Shown here piece by piece: positions 771 through 28,000 of a stretch of 32,094 nucleotides of DNA. A program made the translations under genes and the position numbers. Source of the stretch: a virus (Duplodnaviria; Heunggongvirae; Uroviricota; Caudoviricetes); IMG/VR virus record IMGVR_UViG_2711768042_000002, positions 1-32,094 of that record, one strand, 5' to 3'. The notes below the pieces were generated by a model that saw only the letters and a list, made by a program, of their open reading frames with translations, had not been told where the DNA came from and made no database searches. Every line of letters starts with the position of its first letter. Positions within the stretch are counted from its first letter, which is position 1.

Positions 771-1022
771 ATGGGAAGAGATGACCCGCAATTTAATCTG
801 CGGCTACCTTACGAATTAAAGGAAAAACTAAAACAGCGAGCCAAATCCAATGGCCGCTCTCTTAATTCAGAATTAGTTCAGATAGTGACTGATGCTGTAT
901 CAAAGCCATCCAAAATTTCAGGCTATCGAGACGATGCGGAACGCATCGCTGATGAGCAGTCAGAGCTTGTTAAGAAGATGGTGTTTGATACGCTGAAGGA
1001 TTTGTACAAAAAACCCACCTGA
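771..1022 (+). CDS. mnt: Mnt-like ribbon-helix-helix repressor (immI region)
   Basis: 83-aa ORF MGRDDPQFNLRLPYELKEKLKQRAKSNGRSLNSELVQIV..., closely matching P22 Mnt as recalled (Arc/Mnt RHH N-terminus). Confidence 0.85.
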   Translation: MGRDDPQFNLRLPYELKEKLKQRAKSNGRSLNSELVQIVTDAVSKPSKISGYRDDAERIADEQSELVKKMVFDTLKDLYKKPT

Positions 1023-1121: not shown

Positions 1122-1301
1122 ATGGCGAAAAAACCAGGTGAAAACACAGGAAAAAACGGCGGAATATACCAAGAAGTTGGCCCACGCGGCGGTAAGAAAG
1201 ACAATTTTGCAACCGTCAAGGACAACGAAAGGCTTCCGCCAACAACAAAGCCAGGTCATGGCTGGGTATTGGATAAGCGAACTCCAGACAGCAAAAAGTA
1301 A
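1122..1301 (+). CDS. Hypothetical 59-aa Lys/Gly-rich protein
   Basis: ATG with GAGG RBS 6 nt upstream, in frame with track ORF 1107..1301; MAKKPGENTGKNGGIYQEVGPRGGKK...; followed by its own terminator. Confidence 0.5.
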   Translation: MAKKPGENTGKNGGIYQEVGPRGGKKDNFATVKDNERLPPTTKPGHGWVLDKRTPDSKK

Positions 1302-1308
1302 TAATCAA

Positions 1309-1329
1309 GCCGGGTCACTCCGGCTTTTT
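1309..1329 (+). terminator. Hairpin plus T-run terminator (GCCGG-GTCACT-CCGGC-TTTTT); may also end the convergent minus-strand gene
   Basis: Read directly; stop codon of the minus-strand ORF 1315..1680 sits in the loop. Confidence 0.5.
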
Positions 1330-1680
1330 GATATGTCGCTCGCAGAACTCAACAAGCCTGCTCATTAAGTAGCAGTAAGTCTCGTTGGCTCTTCCTGGTT
1401 CAACATCAACACCTACCCTTGAGCAGATATCGAATGCCATGTGAGCGCACTCATGGGCAATAGTAGATAGTTTGCCATTGAACACGCCTATCACATGCAA
1501 AACACCATTCTCGCTACTCATTGTATGAGACGCTCCGTTGGCGTCCGAGTCATGCACGTCAACGCCAAGTTTTTGATGCAGGCGTTGCCATTCTGGAAAG
1601 TCTCTACAAAACACAATTGTACCGCTCTCAAAGAGCGGAACGAGCATCTTTTGTACGTTTCCAATGTTAACTTTTTTCAT
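1315..1680 (-). CDS. Hypothetical HEXXH zinc-metallopeptidase-like protein (121 aa)
   Basis: Track ORF; ATG with AGGA RBS; motif H76-E-C-A-H80 with Glu about 20 residues downstream (RANETY); several Cys. No specific family recognised. Confidence 0.6.
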   Translation of the reverse strand: MKKVNIGNVQKMLVPLFESGTIVFCRDFPEWQRLHQKLGVDVHDSDANGASHTMSSENGVLHVIGVFNGKLSTIAHECAHMAFDICSRVGVDVEPGRANETYCYLMSRLVEFCERHIKKPE

Positions 1681-1710: not shown

Positions 1711-2160
1711 GTGAGTGAAAAATTATCAGTTGAGATTTACAGGGATGCAAAAAAATTGATTAAAAAGGCATTGCTGATTTCCCTATCTTTGTTAGCCATT
1801 GCCATTGTTTATTTTGTGGCAGACAAAATCTATACAGAACAAAAAAATAGCAAAAAAAATGCTGAGCTGATTATGCGCGCAGAAAATGTTGTCAAGGGTA
1901 AATCACCCATGGTATTCAACAGAACATTCCTTGGCGAAAGCTCCTCTATTTCTGTTTGGTTTATTAATGATTCAGATGGGCATATTCTTGTAGAAAAAAA
2001 CGGTGAAAAATCATTGTTTTCATCAAGAGAATCCGTATACGGTGGCATCAATGCATACCATCAAGCCGGAAAGGCATGTGAAACCCTGTCTTTTTCTATG
2101 ACTTCAGGTTTTGTGATATCTGTTTCTTGCGATTTTGATGATTATTACACTAAAAAATAG
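1711..2160 (+). CDS. Hypothetical membrane-anchored protein (149 aa), AT-rich moron in sieA position
   Basis: GTG start 5 nt after strong AAGGAGG RBS, in frame with track ORF 1495..2160 (upstream part overlaps the HEXXH gene antisense and is rejected); N-terminal hydrophobic helix LLISLSLLAIAIVYFVA; visibly lower GC than flanking genes. Confidence 0.55.
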   Translation: MSEKLSVEIYRDAKKLIKKALLISLSLLAIAIVYFVADKIYTEQKNSKKNAELIMRAENVVKGKSPMVFNRTFLGESSSISVWFINDSDGHILVEKNGEKSLFSSRESVYGGINAYHQAGKACETLSFSMTSGFVISVSCDFDDYYTKK

Positions 2161-2177
2161 CCATCCATGGCATTTAG

Positions 2178-4019
2178 TCACTGCTGTGTTGCCTCAGTAG
2201 CAAACAGCGGTCTGATGGCATTCGCAGCATTATTTAGCGCTCTTTCATAGGCTGGTGTTCCTGCTTTGGTGTTTGCCAAGCGTAAGAGAGCATTCCTTGC
2301 TGCTTTGGATTCATACAAGCGCATCATTGCACCGAAACCAGCCTCAAGCCCCATTGATACGCCAAGAGTCGCAGTTGCGCCAATCGTCCTTATCCTGTTG
2401 GCTTGCGATTGCCCCGTCTGAGTTACTACATTTGCGGTGTCTGACCTTGCTGTTTGCTGTAGAACTTCATGAAGAGCATCAAGTTCTTTCATGTGCTTTC
2501 CAGAAAAAATAGTGTTGTAAATTTCACCGCCTGACTGAGATTTCAGCTTATTAACTTCAGTGATGAACTTGGCTGGAGAGTCACCGGCCTTTTCCGCTAT
2601 TTTGCTGACGTAAGCTGCACGCATAGCATCTTTCCCTTTATCATCCAGTGCGCTCCAGATTCGTTTCACGTCAGATGGTTTTCTGCTTAATACAACGGTA
2701 TTTATAAGTTCAGGACTGGCTTCACTGCTTGCCTTGTTGAGTTTGTTAGCAATGTTTTTATTAAGCACCTTATTATAAACGTTTGCATAATCGGAATTTG
2801 CTTTAAGGTATTTTGCTGCGTCTGATGCACCGAGGTTTTTAGCAACTGCGTTACGAAGGTCTTTTGACATTGCATTCTCTACCATATTGGTAGCTGCTTT
2901 TGCCTGGTTGGGGAAGACCATAGCATCTCCCTGAACATTAGATCTAAATGCTGTTCTGTGCTGACGCAAGAGATCAAACGTAACATCCAAATCAGTTGCA
3001 GGGTTTGCTAATTCTTCACGTAGGTTACGCAAGGATGTAAGCAGGCTTTGATTGGCAGACGTCCCAAGCCGTTCCTGTCTTGCGATCGCTGTATTCAGAG
3101 CATTCATGGTATTTGTGGTATCAACTGCGGCATTACCCATTTTATTGGTGACGTCATTGATAACAGCGCCAGCGGCATCCTTCCGTCCCCTTAACGTGGT
3201 GGTCAGAGATTTCACCACATCATCCGGGTTGTACTCACCAAAACGGTCAAAATAATTACTTACCAACTTACTACGCGTTGCATATTGCTCCGCTCGCTTT
3301 GAGCCTGTCCCGAGCAAAGCCCCCTCGGCATCCTGAGTAAGACCGCGAGTGAAAGCATTTTTCGGCTGGATAACATCAGATGTCATAGGTGTCACGCCCA
3401 TCGATTCTGAGGTGGCAATTTTTTTCGCTACTTCTGGCGCGATATCGCCTTTTATAGCCGTTATTCCACGCCCTATTCCCTTTGCTGCTGCGGAAAGAAC
3501 ACCCTGAGCGGCAAGGTTAACTCCGGCGTTTATGGCTGCATTTTGCGCGAAATCGCCTTTCTGGTTTGCGGCTTCTGCCAGTGATCCTATAGCCATGCTT
3601 CCTGCCGTTCCAACTCCTGGAACTAAATACCCGCCAATTGTTTCTCCAGCTTGCGCATAAGGGTCTGTTGGTCGATCTACTGGACGATAGACATCGTCCA
3701 AAACCTTGGGGCCACCAAGCCCCTGGCTGATTGCATTAATCAGACTTGCGCCACCCTGCAATACGTCAAATGGTATGTTTACCAGACCACGACCAGCCTG
3801 CTCTGCAATTTGCCCTGCACTTTGACCACCTGTGAGCCAATCGCCAGCTTGTTGCATCAATGATGGTTCTTCACGTGCTGGTTCATTATTGGCCTGATTA
3901 ACTGTTTGTTGCTGAACAGCCTGACCAGCAAAATACTCATCAATGGCGGTGCCAATATCTTCCGTGCTCGTACCATCAGGGAAGGTAAATGTCTTACCGT
4001 TTGCAGTTACTTTCATCAT
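2178..4019 (-). CDS. 16: Ejection/injection protein gp16
   Basis: 613 aa, [32 protein letters not shown]... matches P22 gp16 N-terminus as recalled; position after gp20. Confidence 0.9.
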
Positions 4020-5488
4020 TCCACCGTAAATTGAATGCCTGATTTTGAGGTATATGATCCGGATTGACTCTGCTGCTGTTGGGTATTTGTCGGTTGTTGG
4101 CTATTGCTCTGTTGTTGACTATTTGCAGCACTTGAAACCACCAAAGCATCATAAACGCGACCAGACTGACCACGTAATGAGTTATATTGGCCCTGCATTT
4201 TTCGCATTTTTGTTTCAGTAGCAGCCTTGGAATCACCGGGCTGAGGCAGGTACATTTTGGAATACTCCTGCATCTCTGGCAGAGTAATTGCTGCACCTGT
4301 TTCTGGGCGCAAAATTGCATACAAGGCGTCTCTCGCATTTACCATATATTGCTGCTCCGCTGGTGATAGGCTTAAATTTGCAATAGTCCCATCACCAAGA
4401 GAGCGATTTATTAATGCAACTCGCTTAGGGTCAATGCTTTTACTAAGTTGATTCATTGAGTCCATTGAATCTTTTAATCGCAAAGCAAATCCTGCCGCCT
4501 TCTTGGAACCCTCATTAGCCTTATCTATGATGCTTTGCGCTTGTGGCAAACTAATTGGTTTAATGCCATCACCAGATATAGGTTGGTTTAGTTTTCCTGC
4601 TTCCTCGCTGCCATCGGTGTAATACTTAGTTACCGAGCCATCAGGATTGGTTTCAACCTTAAGTAATTTCTTAGCATTGGGATTAATTCCCGCCGCTGCC
4701 GCAAATGCCGCTGCACCATCTGGATCCGCCTTTAACATTTGCGCGTACTGATTGTAATTCTGCATTGCGGCTGTTGGTGCATATGCTGACGTTAACGCAT
4801 TTGCTCGGCTAATATCCTGCCCTCTCGCCTGAAGTGCTTCGCTGGCCTGATTGCTGCGGATTGTCTCTGCCAGTCTGCCTCGGTCAATCTCACGACCAGC
4901 CATCTTGTCCTGAACATTGAAGTAATCAATCGGACCAAGAGCAGCCATTCCAAGGTGATCAACAAACTCACCAAATCCTGAAGGATTCTGCTGATACATC
5001 TGAGCAACGTTATTAGGGTCAACACCGACGCGAGTCAGTTCCTTGGCGTTGTTTTGCAGCCATGATTGCATTGCTTCTGGAGACGAGGCCGCAAGGCGTG
5101 CGCCAGCCGCTAAGGTGCCGATAGAATTGCGCTGGTCTTCGTCTGCCCACTTCATACCAGACTGAATCTTCTCTAATTGACCAGGATATTTGGTCATCAG
5201 ATCTCGCACCTGCTGCCGATCACCTGACTGGATGGCTGCCGCATATTCTTTTTGGAATGCAGCATCCGCTTCCTGTTGCTTTGCGGCTTGATATGTTTGA
5301 GCGACACTACCAAGCCCCTGCAACGCCTGAAGGCCGATGTTATTGCGACCTGAGCGCTCCATTTCGTTGTTCTGGCGAATATATGCCAACGCCTCACTTA
5401 CATCACTTGCCTTTGGCGCATTTGAGTTTTGCCCACCGATACCAGCAAGAAAGCCGCCTGAGTTGATTCCTTGTTGCCAAGTAGCCAT
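4016..5488 (-). CDS. 20: Ejection/injection protein gp20
   Basis: 490 aa, Gln/Ala-rich; order 7-20-16 as in P22; start overlaps gp7 region, stop overlaps gp16 start. Confidence 0.85.
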
Positions 5489-5497
5489 ATTCCCACC

Positions 5498-6172
5498 TTA
5501 AAACAATGATCCAAGACCACCGATAATACCGCCACCAATAGCGCCAACAGCTGTACCTATTCCAGGTACCACAGAGCCAATCATCGCCCCTGATGCCGCA
5601 CCGCTCATGGCACCGCCCAAAGCTGATTGCAATCCTGATGGTCGGTTAGCATTCGCCGCAGATGCTGCCGCCTGCTGTTGATACAATTGGCTGACGTTGT
5701 TAGCGTAGTTCTGCCCGGCGTTTGCCTGACCTGTAAGAGCACCAAGGCCAATGTTTGCCAGATTGTTGTAGTTGTTCATCTGACCTGACAGCCAGTTTTG
5801 ACCGAGTGTAGGTGCGATTGCTGCTAACTGGTTTCCTGTTGCTGTAGAGCCTAATCCACCCGTTGCCTCTGCTGCTGCCAGACTCTGGTAACGCGCCTGA
5901 CCAGCAAGGTCTTTGTACTGCTGGGAGTTGTAATACTGGTTAAGCGCCTGACCTTGCCCCTGAAGAGAGGAAAGATTCTGCAACTCTGATACGTACTGTT
6001 GAGCGAGTGGCGTGAACGGTGCAAGGTTTTGCATGTTCGTTTGCCACATTTCACGCTGCAATTCGATACCCTTTTCAGTTGCGCGTGCCTGGGCTTTTGA
6101 ACCGCCATCACTGCCACCTTTGCAGTAAACAGCTTTGCTGAGGTGCTTATTGGCAATCTGGAAAATTAACAT
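5498..6172 (-). CDS. 7: Ejection/injection protein gp7
   Basis: 224 aa, C-terminal Gly/Ala-rich tail; position between gp14 and gp20. Confidence 0.8.
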   Translation of the reverse strand: MLIFQIANKHLSKAVYCKGGSDGGSKAQARATEKGIELQREMWQTNMQNLAPFTPLAQQYVSELQNLSSLQGQGQALNQYYNSQQYKDLAGQARYQSLAAAEATGGLGSTATGNQLAAIAPTLGQNWLSGQMNNYNNLANIGLGALTGQANAGQNYANNVSQLYQQQAAASAANANRPSGLQSALGGAMSGAASGAMIGSVVPGIGTAVGAIGGGIIGGLGSLF

Positions 6173-18697: not shown

Positions 18698-18773
18698 TGG
18701 TGCTGGTTAACGGACTTGAACCGCTACCCATTCGCTTACAAGGCGACCGCTCTACCATTGGAGCTAAACCAGC
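18698..18773 (-). tRNA. tRNA-Thr (anticodon UGU)
   Basis: Hand-folded cloverleaf: 7-bp perfect acceptor stem GCTGGTT/AACCAGC, D-stem GCTC/GAGC, anticodon loop CTTGTAA, T-arm AGCGG-TTCAAGT-CCGTT, 5-nt variable loop, encoded CCA; one mismatch in anticodon stem. Confidence 0.75.
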
Positions 18774-18778
18774 ATGTT

Positions 18779-18853
18779 TGGTGGGACAGCGTGGACTCGA
18801 ACCACGATAAGAAGGTTAACAGCCTTCCGCAATGACCTTTATACGACTGACCC
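18779..18853 (-). tRNA. tRNA-Asn(GUU)-like, possibly degenerate
   Basis: Anticodon arm GAAGG-CTGTTAA-CCTTC, T-arm CGTGG-TTCGAGT-CCACG and CCA end are canonical; acceptor and D stems each have one mismatch. Confidence 0.45.
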
Positions 18854-25970: not shown

Positions 25971-26201
25971 TTAAGCAGCCATTAATTCAGGCCAGATGCT
26001 TTCCCAATCAACCGGATGAAGGTCTTTGCGAGTCACTTCACCATTGCTGAACTTCTCAATCAGAACACAAAGTGCTGCGCCCAATTCATGATTACGGCTA
26101 AGTGCTTTCCTCAAATAGCCGATAGAAGTTCCGCACTTGGTGGCAAATTCTCTCTGCTCTTCCAGTGAAAGGGAGTTCAGATACAAGCGGAGTTCTTCCA
26201 T
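25971..26201 (-). CDS. cro: Cro-like HTH repressor (positional cro)
   Basis: 76-aa ORF divergent from cI across the operator region; HTH-like segment EFATKCGTSIGYLRKAL; not lambda Cro sequence. Confidence 0.55.
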   Translation of the reverse strand: MEELRLYLNSLSLEEQREFATKCGTSIGYLRKALSRNHELGAALCVLIEKFSNGEVTRKDLHPVDWESIWPELMAA

Positions 26202-26224: not shown

Positions 26225-26295
26225 AATAAGGTAAGTTTACCTGCAGGTAAAAAACAAATCAATACCCACAGGTTATTTACCGATAGGTAATCAAA
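26225..26295. promoter_or_regulatory. OR operator/promoter region (pR/pRM) with TACCTGCAGGTA-type palindromes
   Basis: TTTACCTGCAGGTAAA at ~26236-26251 and TTTACCGATAGGTAA at ~26276-26290 between divergent cro and cI; cI ATG has no SD (leaderless-like). Confidence 0.6.
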
Positions 26296-26309
26296 GATAG
26301 AATTAAATC

Positions 26310-26996
26310 ATGGATAAATACGAACAAAGACGACTAAGGCTGATAGAGATAAGAGACCGATTCTGTAATGGAAAGGCCTCAGAGTTGGCTCGTCGAATAG
26401 AAAGGGAACCATCATACGTTTCCAGAATGCTGTATCCGGAAGGAAAAAGCGGAAAAAAACGCATTGCTGACGATATGATGGAACTAATTGAAAAATCTTT
26501 TAATCTCCCACGCGGATGGATGGACATGCTTGCAGATAGCAAAGTTGGATCTGCAGACCATCTTGAGTTTGCGGGTAACGTTCGTGCGGGTTTTGTTCCG
26601 GTAATTGGTGAAGCCGTTTTGGGAGTTGATGGCTCAGTGGATATGATTGAATTCAGATCCGGTTGGTTAAGCATCTACAGTGGCGATAAAGATGCTTACG
26701 GTCTGAAGGTTAAGGGTGACAGCATGTGGCCAAGGATTCAGTCAGGAGAATATGTTGTTATTGAACCAAATACGCCAGTACATCCAGGTGATGAAGTCTT
26801 TGTAAGGACCAAAGATGGTCATAACATGATAAAGATCATGAACAAAACAAGAGACGGAGACTATCAGTTTAGTAGTATAAACAGCGATCACCGTCCAATC
26901 ACTCTTCCTGTTGAAGAAGTTGATAAAATGCATTTTGTTTCAGCTATTGTGAAACACACTAGGTACGTAGACCAGGACGATCTGCCAAAATTTTGA
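26310..26996 (+). CDS. cI: CI-like prophage repressor with S24 (LexA-like) autopeptidase domain
   Basis: 228 aa; N-terminal HTH region; C-terminal LKVKGDSMWPRI ... K motif typical of S24 peptidase domain. Confidence 0.85.
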   Translation: MDKYEQRRLRLIEIRDRFCNGKASELARRIEREPSYVSRMLYPEGKSGKKRIADDMMELIEKSFNLPRGWMDMLADSKVGSADHLEFAGNVRAGFVPVIGEAVLGVDGSVDMIEFRSGWLSIYSGDKDAYGLKVKGDSMWPRIQSGEYVVIEPNTPVHPGDEVFVRTKDGHNMIKIMNKTRDGDYQFSSINSDHRPITLPVEEVDKMHFVSAIVKHTRYVDQDDLPKF

Positions 26997-27010
26997 GGAT
27001 AAAGCAGCAA

Positions 27011-27307
27011 ATGTTTATACCAGGTATAGTGGTCGCTGTTGTAATCATCTGCTTCATATGGGCAAAGTTATCTCCTGTAAGCTCTAAGCATACAGCTGAA
27101 CTCATGAAGAAGAAGCATCTTATACATGAGGCAGAAACGATAATTAAGAAGTTCAAAGGCATGTCATATGACGACATGTCATCAGATCAGATTGCTATGT
27201 ATAAATGCGCCATTGAGCGTCTTGACTACTTAAACGGACTCAAACCCAAACACACCCCGGTAGAATCAAAATTGCCGCAATGGCCAAGCAATCCAAATAG
27301 CTTCTGA
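27011..27307 (+). CDS. Hypothetical membrane-anchored protein co-oriented immediately downstream of cI (rex position)
   Basis: ATG ~12 nt after GAGG; MFIPGIVVAVVIICFIWAKLS... single N-terminal TM helix then charged soluble domain; followed by strong terminator; AT-rich. Confidence 0.55.
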   Translation: MFIPGIVVAVVIICFIWAKLSPVSSKHTAELMKKKHLIHEAETIIKKFKGMSYDDMSSDQIAMYKCAIERLDYLNGLKPKHTPVESKLPQWPSNPNSF

Positions 27308-27318
27308 CATCTCCTTTC

Positions 27319-27342
27319 AGCCCGCAAAGCGGGCTTTTTTAT
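27319..27342 (+). terminator. Rho-independent terminator ending the cI operon
   Basis: AGCCCGC-AAA-GCGGGCT followed by TTTTTT. Confidence 0.75.
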
Positions 27343-27354
27343 ATCAATCCAAAA

Positions 27355-27445
27355 AATTAATTACCTGAAAATTCAAACAGGTAAACTCTCACACCAATTT
27401 TATTTACCTGCAGGTATAGACAACAGTTTTACCTGTAGGTATATT
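27355..27445. promoter_or_regulatory. OL operator / pL promoter region
   Basis: TTTACCTGCAGGTATA (~27403-27418), TTTTACCTGTAGGTATA (~27427-27443) and split TTACCTG...CAGGTAA; candidate -35 TAGACA / -10 TATATT overlapping operators. Confidence 0.55.
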
Positions 27446-27673: not shown

Positions 27674-28000
27674 ATGGATGCACAAACACGCCGCCGCGAA
27701 CGTCGCGCAGAGAAACAGGCTCAATGGAAAGCAGCAAATCCCCTGTTGGTTGGGGTAAGCGCAAAACCAGTTAACCGCCCTATTCTCTCGCTGAATCGCA
27801 AACCGAAATCACGAGTAGAAAGCGCACTGAATCCGATAGACCTTACGGTGCTGGCTGAATACCACGAACAGATTGAAAGCAACCTGCAACGTATTGAGCG
27901 CAAGAATCAGCGCACATGGTACAGCAAGCCACGCAGTGAAATGGGTGTGACTTGTGTTGGTCGCCAGAAAATGAAATTAGGCAGCAAACCACTTATTTGA
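27674..28000 (+). CDS. N: Antitermination protein N (lambda-type)
   Basis: MDAQTRRRERRAEKQAQWKAANPLLVGVSAKPVNRPILSLNRKPKSRVESALNPIDLTVLAEYH... matches lambda N arginine-rich motif and body; start at internal ATG of track ORF 27542..28000. Confidence 0.9.
   Translation: MDAQTRRRERRAEKQAQWKAANPLLVGVSAKPVNRPILSLNRKPKSRVESALNPIDLTVLAEYHEQIESNLQRIERKNQRTWYSKPRSEMGVTCVGRQKMKLGSKPLI

Follow-up and report, generated by a model that had tools for sequence, protein, structure and literature searches.

The open reading frame (ORF) of 98 codons at positions 27011–27307 on the plus strand of the window, i.e., of the whole 32,094-nucleotide stretch of viral DNA analyzed here, truly encodes a protein. The gene occupies the second and final position in the cI (pRM-type) operon of a P22-like prophage with an mEp043-type immunity module, and its product is a member of PHROG 10450, an uncharacterized family restricted to prophages of Enterobacteriaceae. 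The chief new result is that members of this family occur in only two places, both of them accessory-gene (moron) slots that are transcribed in the lysogen. We infer that the ORF is a small membrane moron expressed from the prophage, and on the best reading of the evidence PHROG 10450 would be a new protein family through which prophages exert exclusion or defense at the inner membrane.

The immunity region of the window is lambdoid, and its orientation is reversed relative to the lambda map. The genes for a primase/helicase, an O-like protein, cII, and a cro-like protein (25971–26201) are located on the minus strand and are followed by the OR operators, and the plus strand carries, in this order, cI, the target ORF, a terminator, the OL-type operators with a pL-like promoter, and N. 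The operators at OR and OL are 16-bp palindromes of the TTTACCTGCAGGTA type. A consensus scan placed a putative pRM-like promoter, TTTACC-16-TAGAAT, amid the OR operator repeats (26276–26303, plus strand). The ATG of cI lies 6 nt past the end of this promoter, so the cI message would be leaderless or nearly leaderless, as in lambda. The first gene of the operon (26310–26996, plus strand) encodes a cI-type prophage repressor of 228 amino acids with an S24 autopeptidase domain (Pfam Peptidase_S24, E-value of 1.4e-17; phrog_4 transcriptional repressor, E-value of 2e-32), and its counterpart in phage mEp043 carries a cI annotation.

The ORF follows directly behind cI on the same strand, as an earlier note on this DNA had stated, but its ATG at 27011 is separated from the cI stop codon by 14 nt, not by 15. 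The length of about 98 amino acids given there was correct, and the ORF has its own ribosome-binding site: a Shine-Dalgarno-like GAGGA, read from the sequence at 26995–26999 (plus strand), overlaps the cI stop codon and is located 11 nt 5' of the start codon. Similar motifs also precede the orthologues in three other immunity modules (loci L010, L012, and L019). According to the list of ORFs, nothing else is encoded between cI and the terminator. The latter, AGCCCGC-AAA-GCGGGCT followed by T6 (27319–27340, plus strand), ends the transcript of cI and the ORF and is as strong as the note had claimed, with a stem (27319–27335) of 7 bp, six of them GC, an AAA loop, a dG of −12.6 kcal/mol, and a z-score of −2.7. 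It is unidirectional, since the minus-strand reading has no T-run. It is also the single terminator-like site on the plus strand in the interval from cI to N; the scan found none between cI and the ORF. An internal promoter within cI that could serve the ORF, analogous to pLIT of lambda, was searched for as well, and nothing above the expectation from shuffled sequences was seen. Rfam detected no RNA family in or near the ORF. Judging from the operon anatomy only, the ORF would be transcribed from pRM and the lysogen would produce the protein at all times.

On its downstream side, the slot is bounded by the OL region (27361–27443, unstranded), which consists of a palindrome and two 16-bp operators (27403–27418 and 27428–27443) with the motif common to OR and OL. 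The palindrome, TTACCTG-N10-CAGGTAA at 27361–27384, is situated directly 3' of the terminator and is kept in the three divergent modules mentioned above. Its half-sites match those of the 16-bp operators but are spaced 10 bp wider, and it may represent a variant OL3 or be bound in a different mode. A pL-like promoter, TAGACA-17-TATATT (27417–27445, plus strand), with 10 of 12 consensus matches, drives the lambda-type N gene (27674–28000, plus strand; Pfam N36, E-value of 1.5e-26). The ORF lies within the cI–N interval, ahead of OL, pL, nutL, and N, which is the slot of rexA/rexB in lambda to which the earlier note had assigned it. Outside the immunity region, the window represents a P22-like (CUS-3/Kapi1-like) podovirus prophage, in which the ejection genes 7, 20, and 16 are located at 2178–6172 on the minus strand. 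Two adjacent tRNA genes are also present inside the prophage, at 18701–18853 on the minus strand (Rfam tRNA, 61 and 53 bits).

In the ten copies sampled, the reading frame was always intact and free of indels. The start codon was ATG in seven copies and GTG in three, mEp043 being among the latter. Third codon positions accounted for 9 of the 17 variable sites, and the amino acid changes were conservative. The pN/pS ratio (Nei-Gojobori) was 0.23 for the ORF and 0.13 for cI, and the former value indicates purifying selection on the ORF within the E. coli allele. Among 5426 complete E. coli genomes, 52 contained the ORF; a probe for cI gave the same count of 52, and no cI without the ORF was seen. 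The immunity cassette was 96.6% identical in phage mEp043. Stop-free runs of at least 98 codons arose in 1.1% of shuffled sequences; that the ORF is more than a product of chance is more decisively indicated by the homologues of 30–45% identity that have kept its length and architecture.

Genome annotation mostly misses the gene, and PGAP has no annotation for it in 38 of the 40 RefSeq E. coli genomes listed. For the orthologue at 5896–6192 of L019, gene callers give a protein of 63 amino acids that has lost the transmembrane (TM) helix, although the full 98-amino-acid ORF exists. The upstream TTG start annotated in mEp043, which would yield 104 amino acids and overlap the cI stop codon, is less likely than the ATG or GTG at 27011, because GAGGA precedes the latter and all relatives begin with M-[FYW]-I there. 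As a separate observation, the variation in cI among the E. coli copies clusters in the inter-domain linker (codons 75–82), and the pN/pS ratio of cI was 0.83 for codons 1–100 and 0.03 for codons 101–228.

Searched against PHROG 10450, a family of unknown function, the protein gave an E-value of 1e-55, with residues 1–98 aligned to positions 1–98 of the 98-position profile, and all 17 aligned relatives matched the same family. The relatives are 30–45% identical to it, equal in length, and equipped with one N-terminal TM helix. They are also rare: HMMER, run exhaustively on 1.84 billion representative proteins, returned only about ten, with no chromosomal host homologue among them, and the family is prophage-confined. 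A profile search of a 5.8-billion-protein set gave 21 clusters, all annotated as 'hypothetical', and those with a named source came from Escherichia, Salmonella, and Cronobacter.

The profile and structure search that had been proposed as a check thus led to PHROG 10450 and to no match in Pfam, NCBIfam, PADLOC, the PDB, or the fold comparisons. The protein and its 17 relatives produced sub-threshold noise only when scanned with Pfam, NCBIfam, and PADLOC, and the protein itself matched 0 families among the PADLOC-DB v2 defense models at E-values of up to 10. The profile search of the PDB gave no match, and Foldseek, run with two AF2 models against the PDB and BFVD, gave none with an E-value below 1. 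YebO-type matches were absent among the homologues. A match to the 'transcriptional regulator' family phrog_1077 (E-value of 0.003) was dismissed as noise, because it was obtained with 2 of the 17 members only and covered just the TM helix and the first helix. In the literature on mEp043 and the GenBank accessions, we found no functional work on the ORF.

The 98-amino-acid product consists of an N-terminal TM anchor, a helical hairpin, and a WP-containing tail. The TM helix, FIPGIVVAVVIICFIWAKL (codons 2–20, positions 27014–27070, plus strand), is indicated by hydropathy and by a helix in the AF2 model. On the Kyte-Doolittle scale, residues 2–20 scored 2.53 and the next-best segment 0.05, so the single N-terminal TM helix described in the earlier note is indeed the sole hydrophobic segment. 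The charged character ascribed there to the C-terminal part was likewise confirmed (12 K/R and 9 D/E). No K/R precedes the TM segment, and four are found among the 15 residues that follow it. The same pattern was seen in all 11 full-length members, each with one TM helix (residues 1–21), 0 K/R before it, and 1–6 K/R in the 15 residues after it. With the positive-inside rule as the sole basis, the predicted topology is N-out/C-in: the N-terminal helix would anchor the protein in the inner membrane, and a helical-hairpin domain of about 75 residues with the conserved WP tail would face the cytoplasm. A reading as a lipoprotein or a Sec signal peptide was rejected, as none of the members has a basic n-region and the Cys of the TM segment varies in position and presence.

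The AlphaFold model, built on a shallow alignment of 17 sequences, had a pLDDT of 81.5. It shows a long helix (residues 5–47), in which the TM segment runs on into the cytoplasm, a loop, a second helix (residues 58–76), and the tail with the invariant WP. In 11 diverse full-length members, the invariant residues were M1, I3, H27, K34, I38, E40, A41, M56, C66, A67, L71, W91, and P92, and nothing resembling an enzyme-like site was seen among them. From the helix lengths in the model, the small residues A41, C66, and A67 may be located at the helix–helix interface. Conservation is lowest in the TM segment, which contains no conserved polar or pore-lining residues.

The two slots occupied by the family correspond to two clades. 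The members of clade I, which include the window gene, that of mEp043, and those at loci L010, L012, and L019–L022, are located directly behind an S24 cI gene and before OL and N. As mEp043 is a lambda-tailed siphovirus and the prophage of the window a podovirus, the ORF appears to travel with the immunity module and not with the virion type. The members of clade II (11 loci: L014, L015, L018, L023, L028–L033, and ORF14 of phage N7) are found in P22-like phages and prophages, where they are convergent with the ejection gene 16 and 4–17 nt apart from it. At most of the clade II loci whose contig extends far enough, a gene of the Arc/Mnt family is located upstream in the same orientation, placed like mnt in P22. 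The position and orientation of the clade II genes are those of sieA in P22, in the region named the 'ant moron' by Casjens (PMC2629481). Among the neighboring genes tested at clade II loci, no SieA homologue was found; ORF15 of N7, a clade II neighbor of 169 amino acids, was one of the candidates and is not SieA.

The window has a sieA slot of its own, and this slot holds a different gene, an orphan of 149 amino acids with a single TM helix (1711–2160, plus strand) that adjoins gene 16 (2178–4019, minus strand) and has neither a PHROG match nor similarity to SieA. As far as the GTG start codon, its 5' flank, with the ribosome site TAAGGAGGT, is nearly identical to that of the E. coli locus L023. 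Past the GTG, L023 continues with a clade II PHROG 10450 gene and the window with the orphan, i.e., the two genes are swapped exactly at the start codon. The ant moron of the window further contains a gene of the Mnt/Arc family (771–1019, plus strand), a phrog_3202 gene for 59 amino acids followed by a terminator-like hairpin (1122–1298, plus strand), and a phrog_1365 gene (1318–1680, minus strand). In the portion of the moron that falls within the window, neither ant nor arc was seen.

In the four related immunity modules of the window, L010, L012, and L019, cI and the ORF have diverged to very different degrees. Their cI proteins are 82–87% identical and the proteins of the ORF 40–52%. At the DNA level, the identity is 70–88% across cro–cI, 40–60% from the cI stop codon to the end of the ORF, and about 70–78% in the first OL segment. 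Alleles that are deeply divergent yet individually conserved would suit a gene that bears specificity and is driven by conflict. On the other hand, the fast divergence could also result from weak constraint and not from an arms race.

The interval between cI and N is a known hotspot for morons and defense genes, which holds rexAB and bstA (PMC7067206, PMC8585504) as well as the kinase gene of 933W and hex of phage 434 (PMC3564112). The target protein resembles the products of rex, sieA, hex, and bstA in its slot and HK97 gp15 in its architecture. It falls outside the SieA, RexB, gp15, and Hex families, since the profile comparisons gave homology probabilities of about 1% or less and PADLOC gave no match. 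Like rexA and rexB, the ORF is located downstream of cI and upstream of OL, pL, and N on a transcript that ends at a terminator, and RexB is an inner-membrane protein as well. The lambda system is, however, made up of two genes, for RexA of 279 amino acids and a multi-pass RexB of 144 amino acids, whereas here a single 98-amino-acid protein with one TM helix is encoded. The earlier note had already set this small protein apart from RexAB, and the comparison agrees, as homology to RexB was rejected (hhalign, 0.2%) and no Rex family of PHROG or Pfam was matched.

P22 SieA (PHROG 7745) blocks injection, its escape mutations map to gp16 and gp20, and it is present in only 22 of 66 P22-like phages (PMC10883804). 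The clade II relatives hold its position in the ant moron, convergent with gene 16, and both SieA and the target protein are prophage-made inner-membrane proteins, shown or predicted (PMC10883804). SieA is larger, with 162–164 amino acids and three TM helices (four in types B and C), as opposed to about 100 amino acids and one TM helix. The window gene, unlike sieA, is situated behind cI, and the interval between genes 16 and 9 holds the clade II relatives only. The SieA motif FxRYPxEAxxFNK (PMC10883804) is absent from the PHROG 10450 alignment, and homology was rejected (hhalign, 0.9%).

The moron protein gp15 of HK97, of 62 amino acids, blocks DNA entry (PMC3594210) and matches the target protein in architecture, which does not amount to membership of one family. 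Both proteins have a very short N-terminus, one TM helix, basic residues, and a charged helical C-terminal region, and gp15 is likewise encoded by a small moron with its own terminator that is expressed from the prophage (PMC3594210). It differs in its length (62 versus 98 amino acids), in its location in the tail operon with its own promoter, and in having chromosomal relatives of the YebO type, of which PHROG 10450 has none. Homology to gp15/YebO was rejected (hhalign, 1%).

Hex of phage 434, first defined by the heterologous exclusion of P22 and also assigned a role in stabilizing the lysogen, is the product of a single gene directly after the repressor gene on the pRM transcript (PMC3564112), an arrangement shared by the target ORF. 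It differs in its size (134 amino acids), in its signal-peptide-like N-terminus, and in its proposed role, the shielding of the repressor from RecA; homology was rejected here, too (hhalign, 0.1%). As re-annotated (L034, 1980–2384), Hex begins with MIRIAALLSILLTTSANSEC, which has the look of a signal peptide and is odd for the published cytoplasmic role in protection from RecA. The bstA gene of BTP1 is similar in that it is located directly downstream of cI, is co-transcribed with it, and is followed by a terminator in P22-like prophages (PMC7067206, PMC8585504). BstA itself, in contrast, is not a small single-TM membrane protein and localizes to sites of phage DNA replication (PMC8585504).

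We put a probability of roughly 0.4 on the reading that the protein shields the lysogen from other phages at the inner membrane, where it would stop the productive entry of superinfecting DNA. Its target would be either the membrane conduit of the phage, i.e., ejection proteins or the tape measure, or a host inner-membrane factor that the conduit needs. Such interference with the conduit would parallel how SieA and HK97 gp15 are thought to act, and the deep divergence of the alleles would mirror differing target specificities. The reading of the ORF as an exclusion or defense gene is strengthened because its relatives share the slot behind other cI genes, because a second clade fills the P22 sieA slot beside gene 16, and because the ORF forms a fast-diverging island in a conserved immunity module. 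To call it a strong candidate for an exclusion or defense factor, as the earlier note did, is fair wording for a role that we infer. Against exclusion, the argument from the slots is one of guilt by association, as the slots also hold genes with other roles, and the predicted cytoplasmic domain would fit a sensor or regulator equally well. A more specific version, in which PHROG 10450 is a single-pass superinfection-exclusion family that serves as interchangeable cargo of both slots, replaces SieA, and blocks the conduit from the cytoplasmic face with allele-specific targets, is somewhat unlikely in its entirety.

A sensor-like cytoplasmic domain would also be expected if the protein acted by abortive infection. 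The protein would then stay inert until the domain sensed a phage protein or a replication intermediate, upon which the TM helices would oligomerize and cause depolarization or another form of killing, making the protein a one-protein counterpart of RexA/RexB. Its slot is shared with rexAB, bstA, and the 933W kinase gene, all of them abortive-infection systems (PMC8585504, PMC3564112), and divergent alleles would fit differing triggers. However, one short TM helix, which is the least conserved part of the protein and has no conserved polar or pore-lining residues, is ill suited to this task, no similarity to RexB or to any PADLOC model was found, and the other slot of the family is that of an entry blocker, sieA, and not of an abortive-infection gene. 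We therefore regard abortive infection as unlikely.

To about the same degree we doubt that the gene serves lysogenic conversion unrelated to phages, as a small inner-membrane protein that modulates a host membrane protein or envelope or stress physiology and thereby gives a gain in fitness. Moron slots do carry non-defense cargo, such as lom and bor in lambda (PMC7067206), a role in stress responses is common among small envelope proteins (PMC3594210), and the architecture of the protein is like that of small single-TM regulators, with no defense homology found by PADLOC. Nevertheless, a regulator of a conserved host protein would not be expected to show extreme allelic divergence beside a conserved cI, both slots are best known for exclusion genes, and the family is limited to prophages, the 1.84 billion representative proteins including no chromosomal homologue.

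A quite improbable alternative is that the protein stabilizes lysogeny in the manner of Hex and damps induction, e.g., by hindering the RecA-stimulated cleavage of the repressor or the action of an antirepressor. Hex, co-transcribed from pRM with the 434 repressor, is reported to shield it from RecA cleavage (PMC3564112). In addition, the ORF occurs in strict linkage with a single type of S24 cI, and both operons in which the family is found, that of cI and that of the Arc-family gene placed like P22 mnt, would serve to maintain lysogeny. Yet the protein has no similarity to Hex, the clade II genes adjoin repressors of the Arc/Mnt type, and these are no substrates of RecA, the divergence of the ORF is much faster than that of the cI that it would have to recognize, and a membrane anchor would be of no obvious use. 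Finally, that the reading frame arose by chance or is decaying, within a spacer that in truth serves to provide a terminator insulating pRM transcription from OL/pL, as the omissions by PGAP and the roughly 1% of shuffles with equal length might suggest, is effectively refuted by the conservation of the family, in which distant homologues keep the motifs, length, and TM helix in two genomic contexts, and is opposed by the purifying selection, the Shine-Dalgarno-like motifs before orthologues, and the pLDDT obtained from so shallow an alignment.

The preferred reading as an exclusion or defense protein is of interest as repressor-adjacent prophage genes, namely rexAB, the 933W kinase gene, hex, and bstA, have repeatedly proved to be phage-defense systems. 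The target ORF is a compact and experimentally easy candidate; about 1% of the complete E. coli genomes contain it, as does a culturable phage, mEp043. The presence of one family in both the rex and the sieA slots, together with the swap that is exact to the start codon, suggests that the two slots share a pool of small membrane proteins, and it provides a testable lead on what takes the place of SieA in those P22-like phages, roughly two-thirds of them, that are without it. If the block to DNA entry is true, escape mutants would help to map how the conduits of podoviruses and siphoviruses cross the inner membrane.
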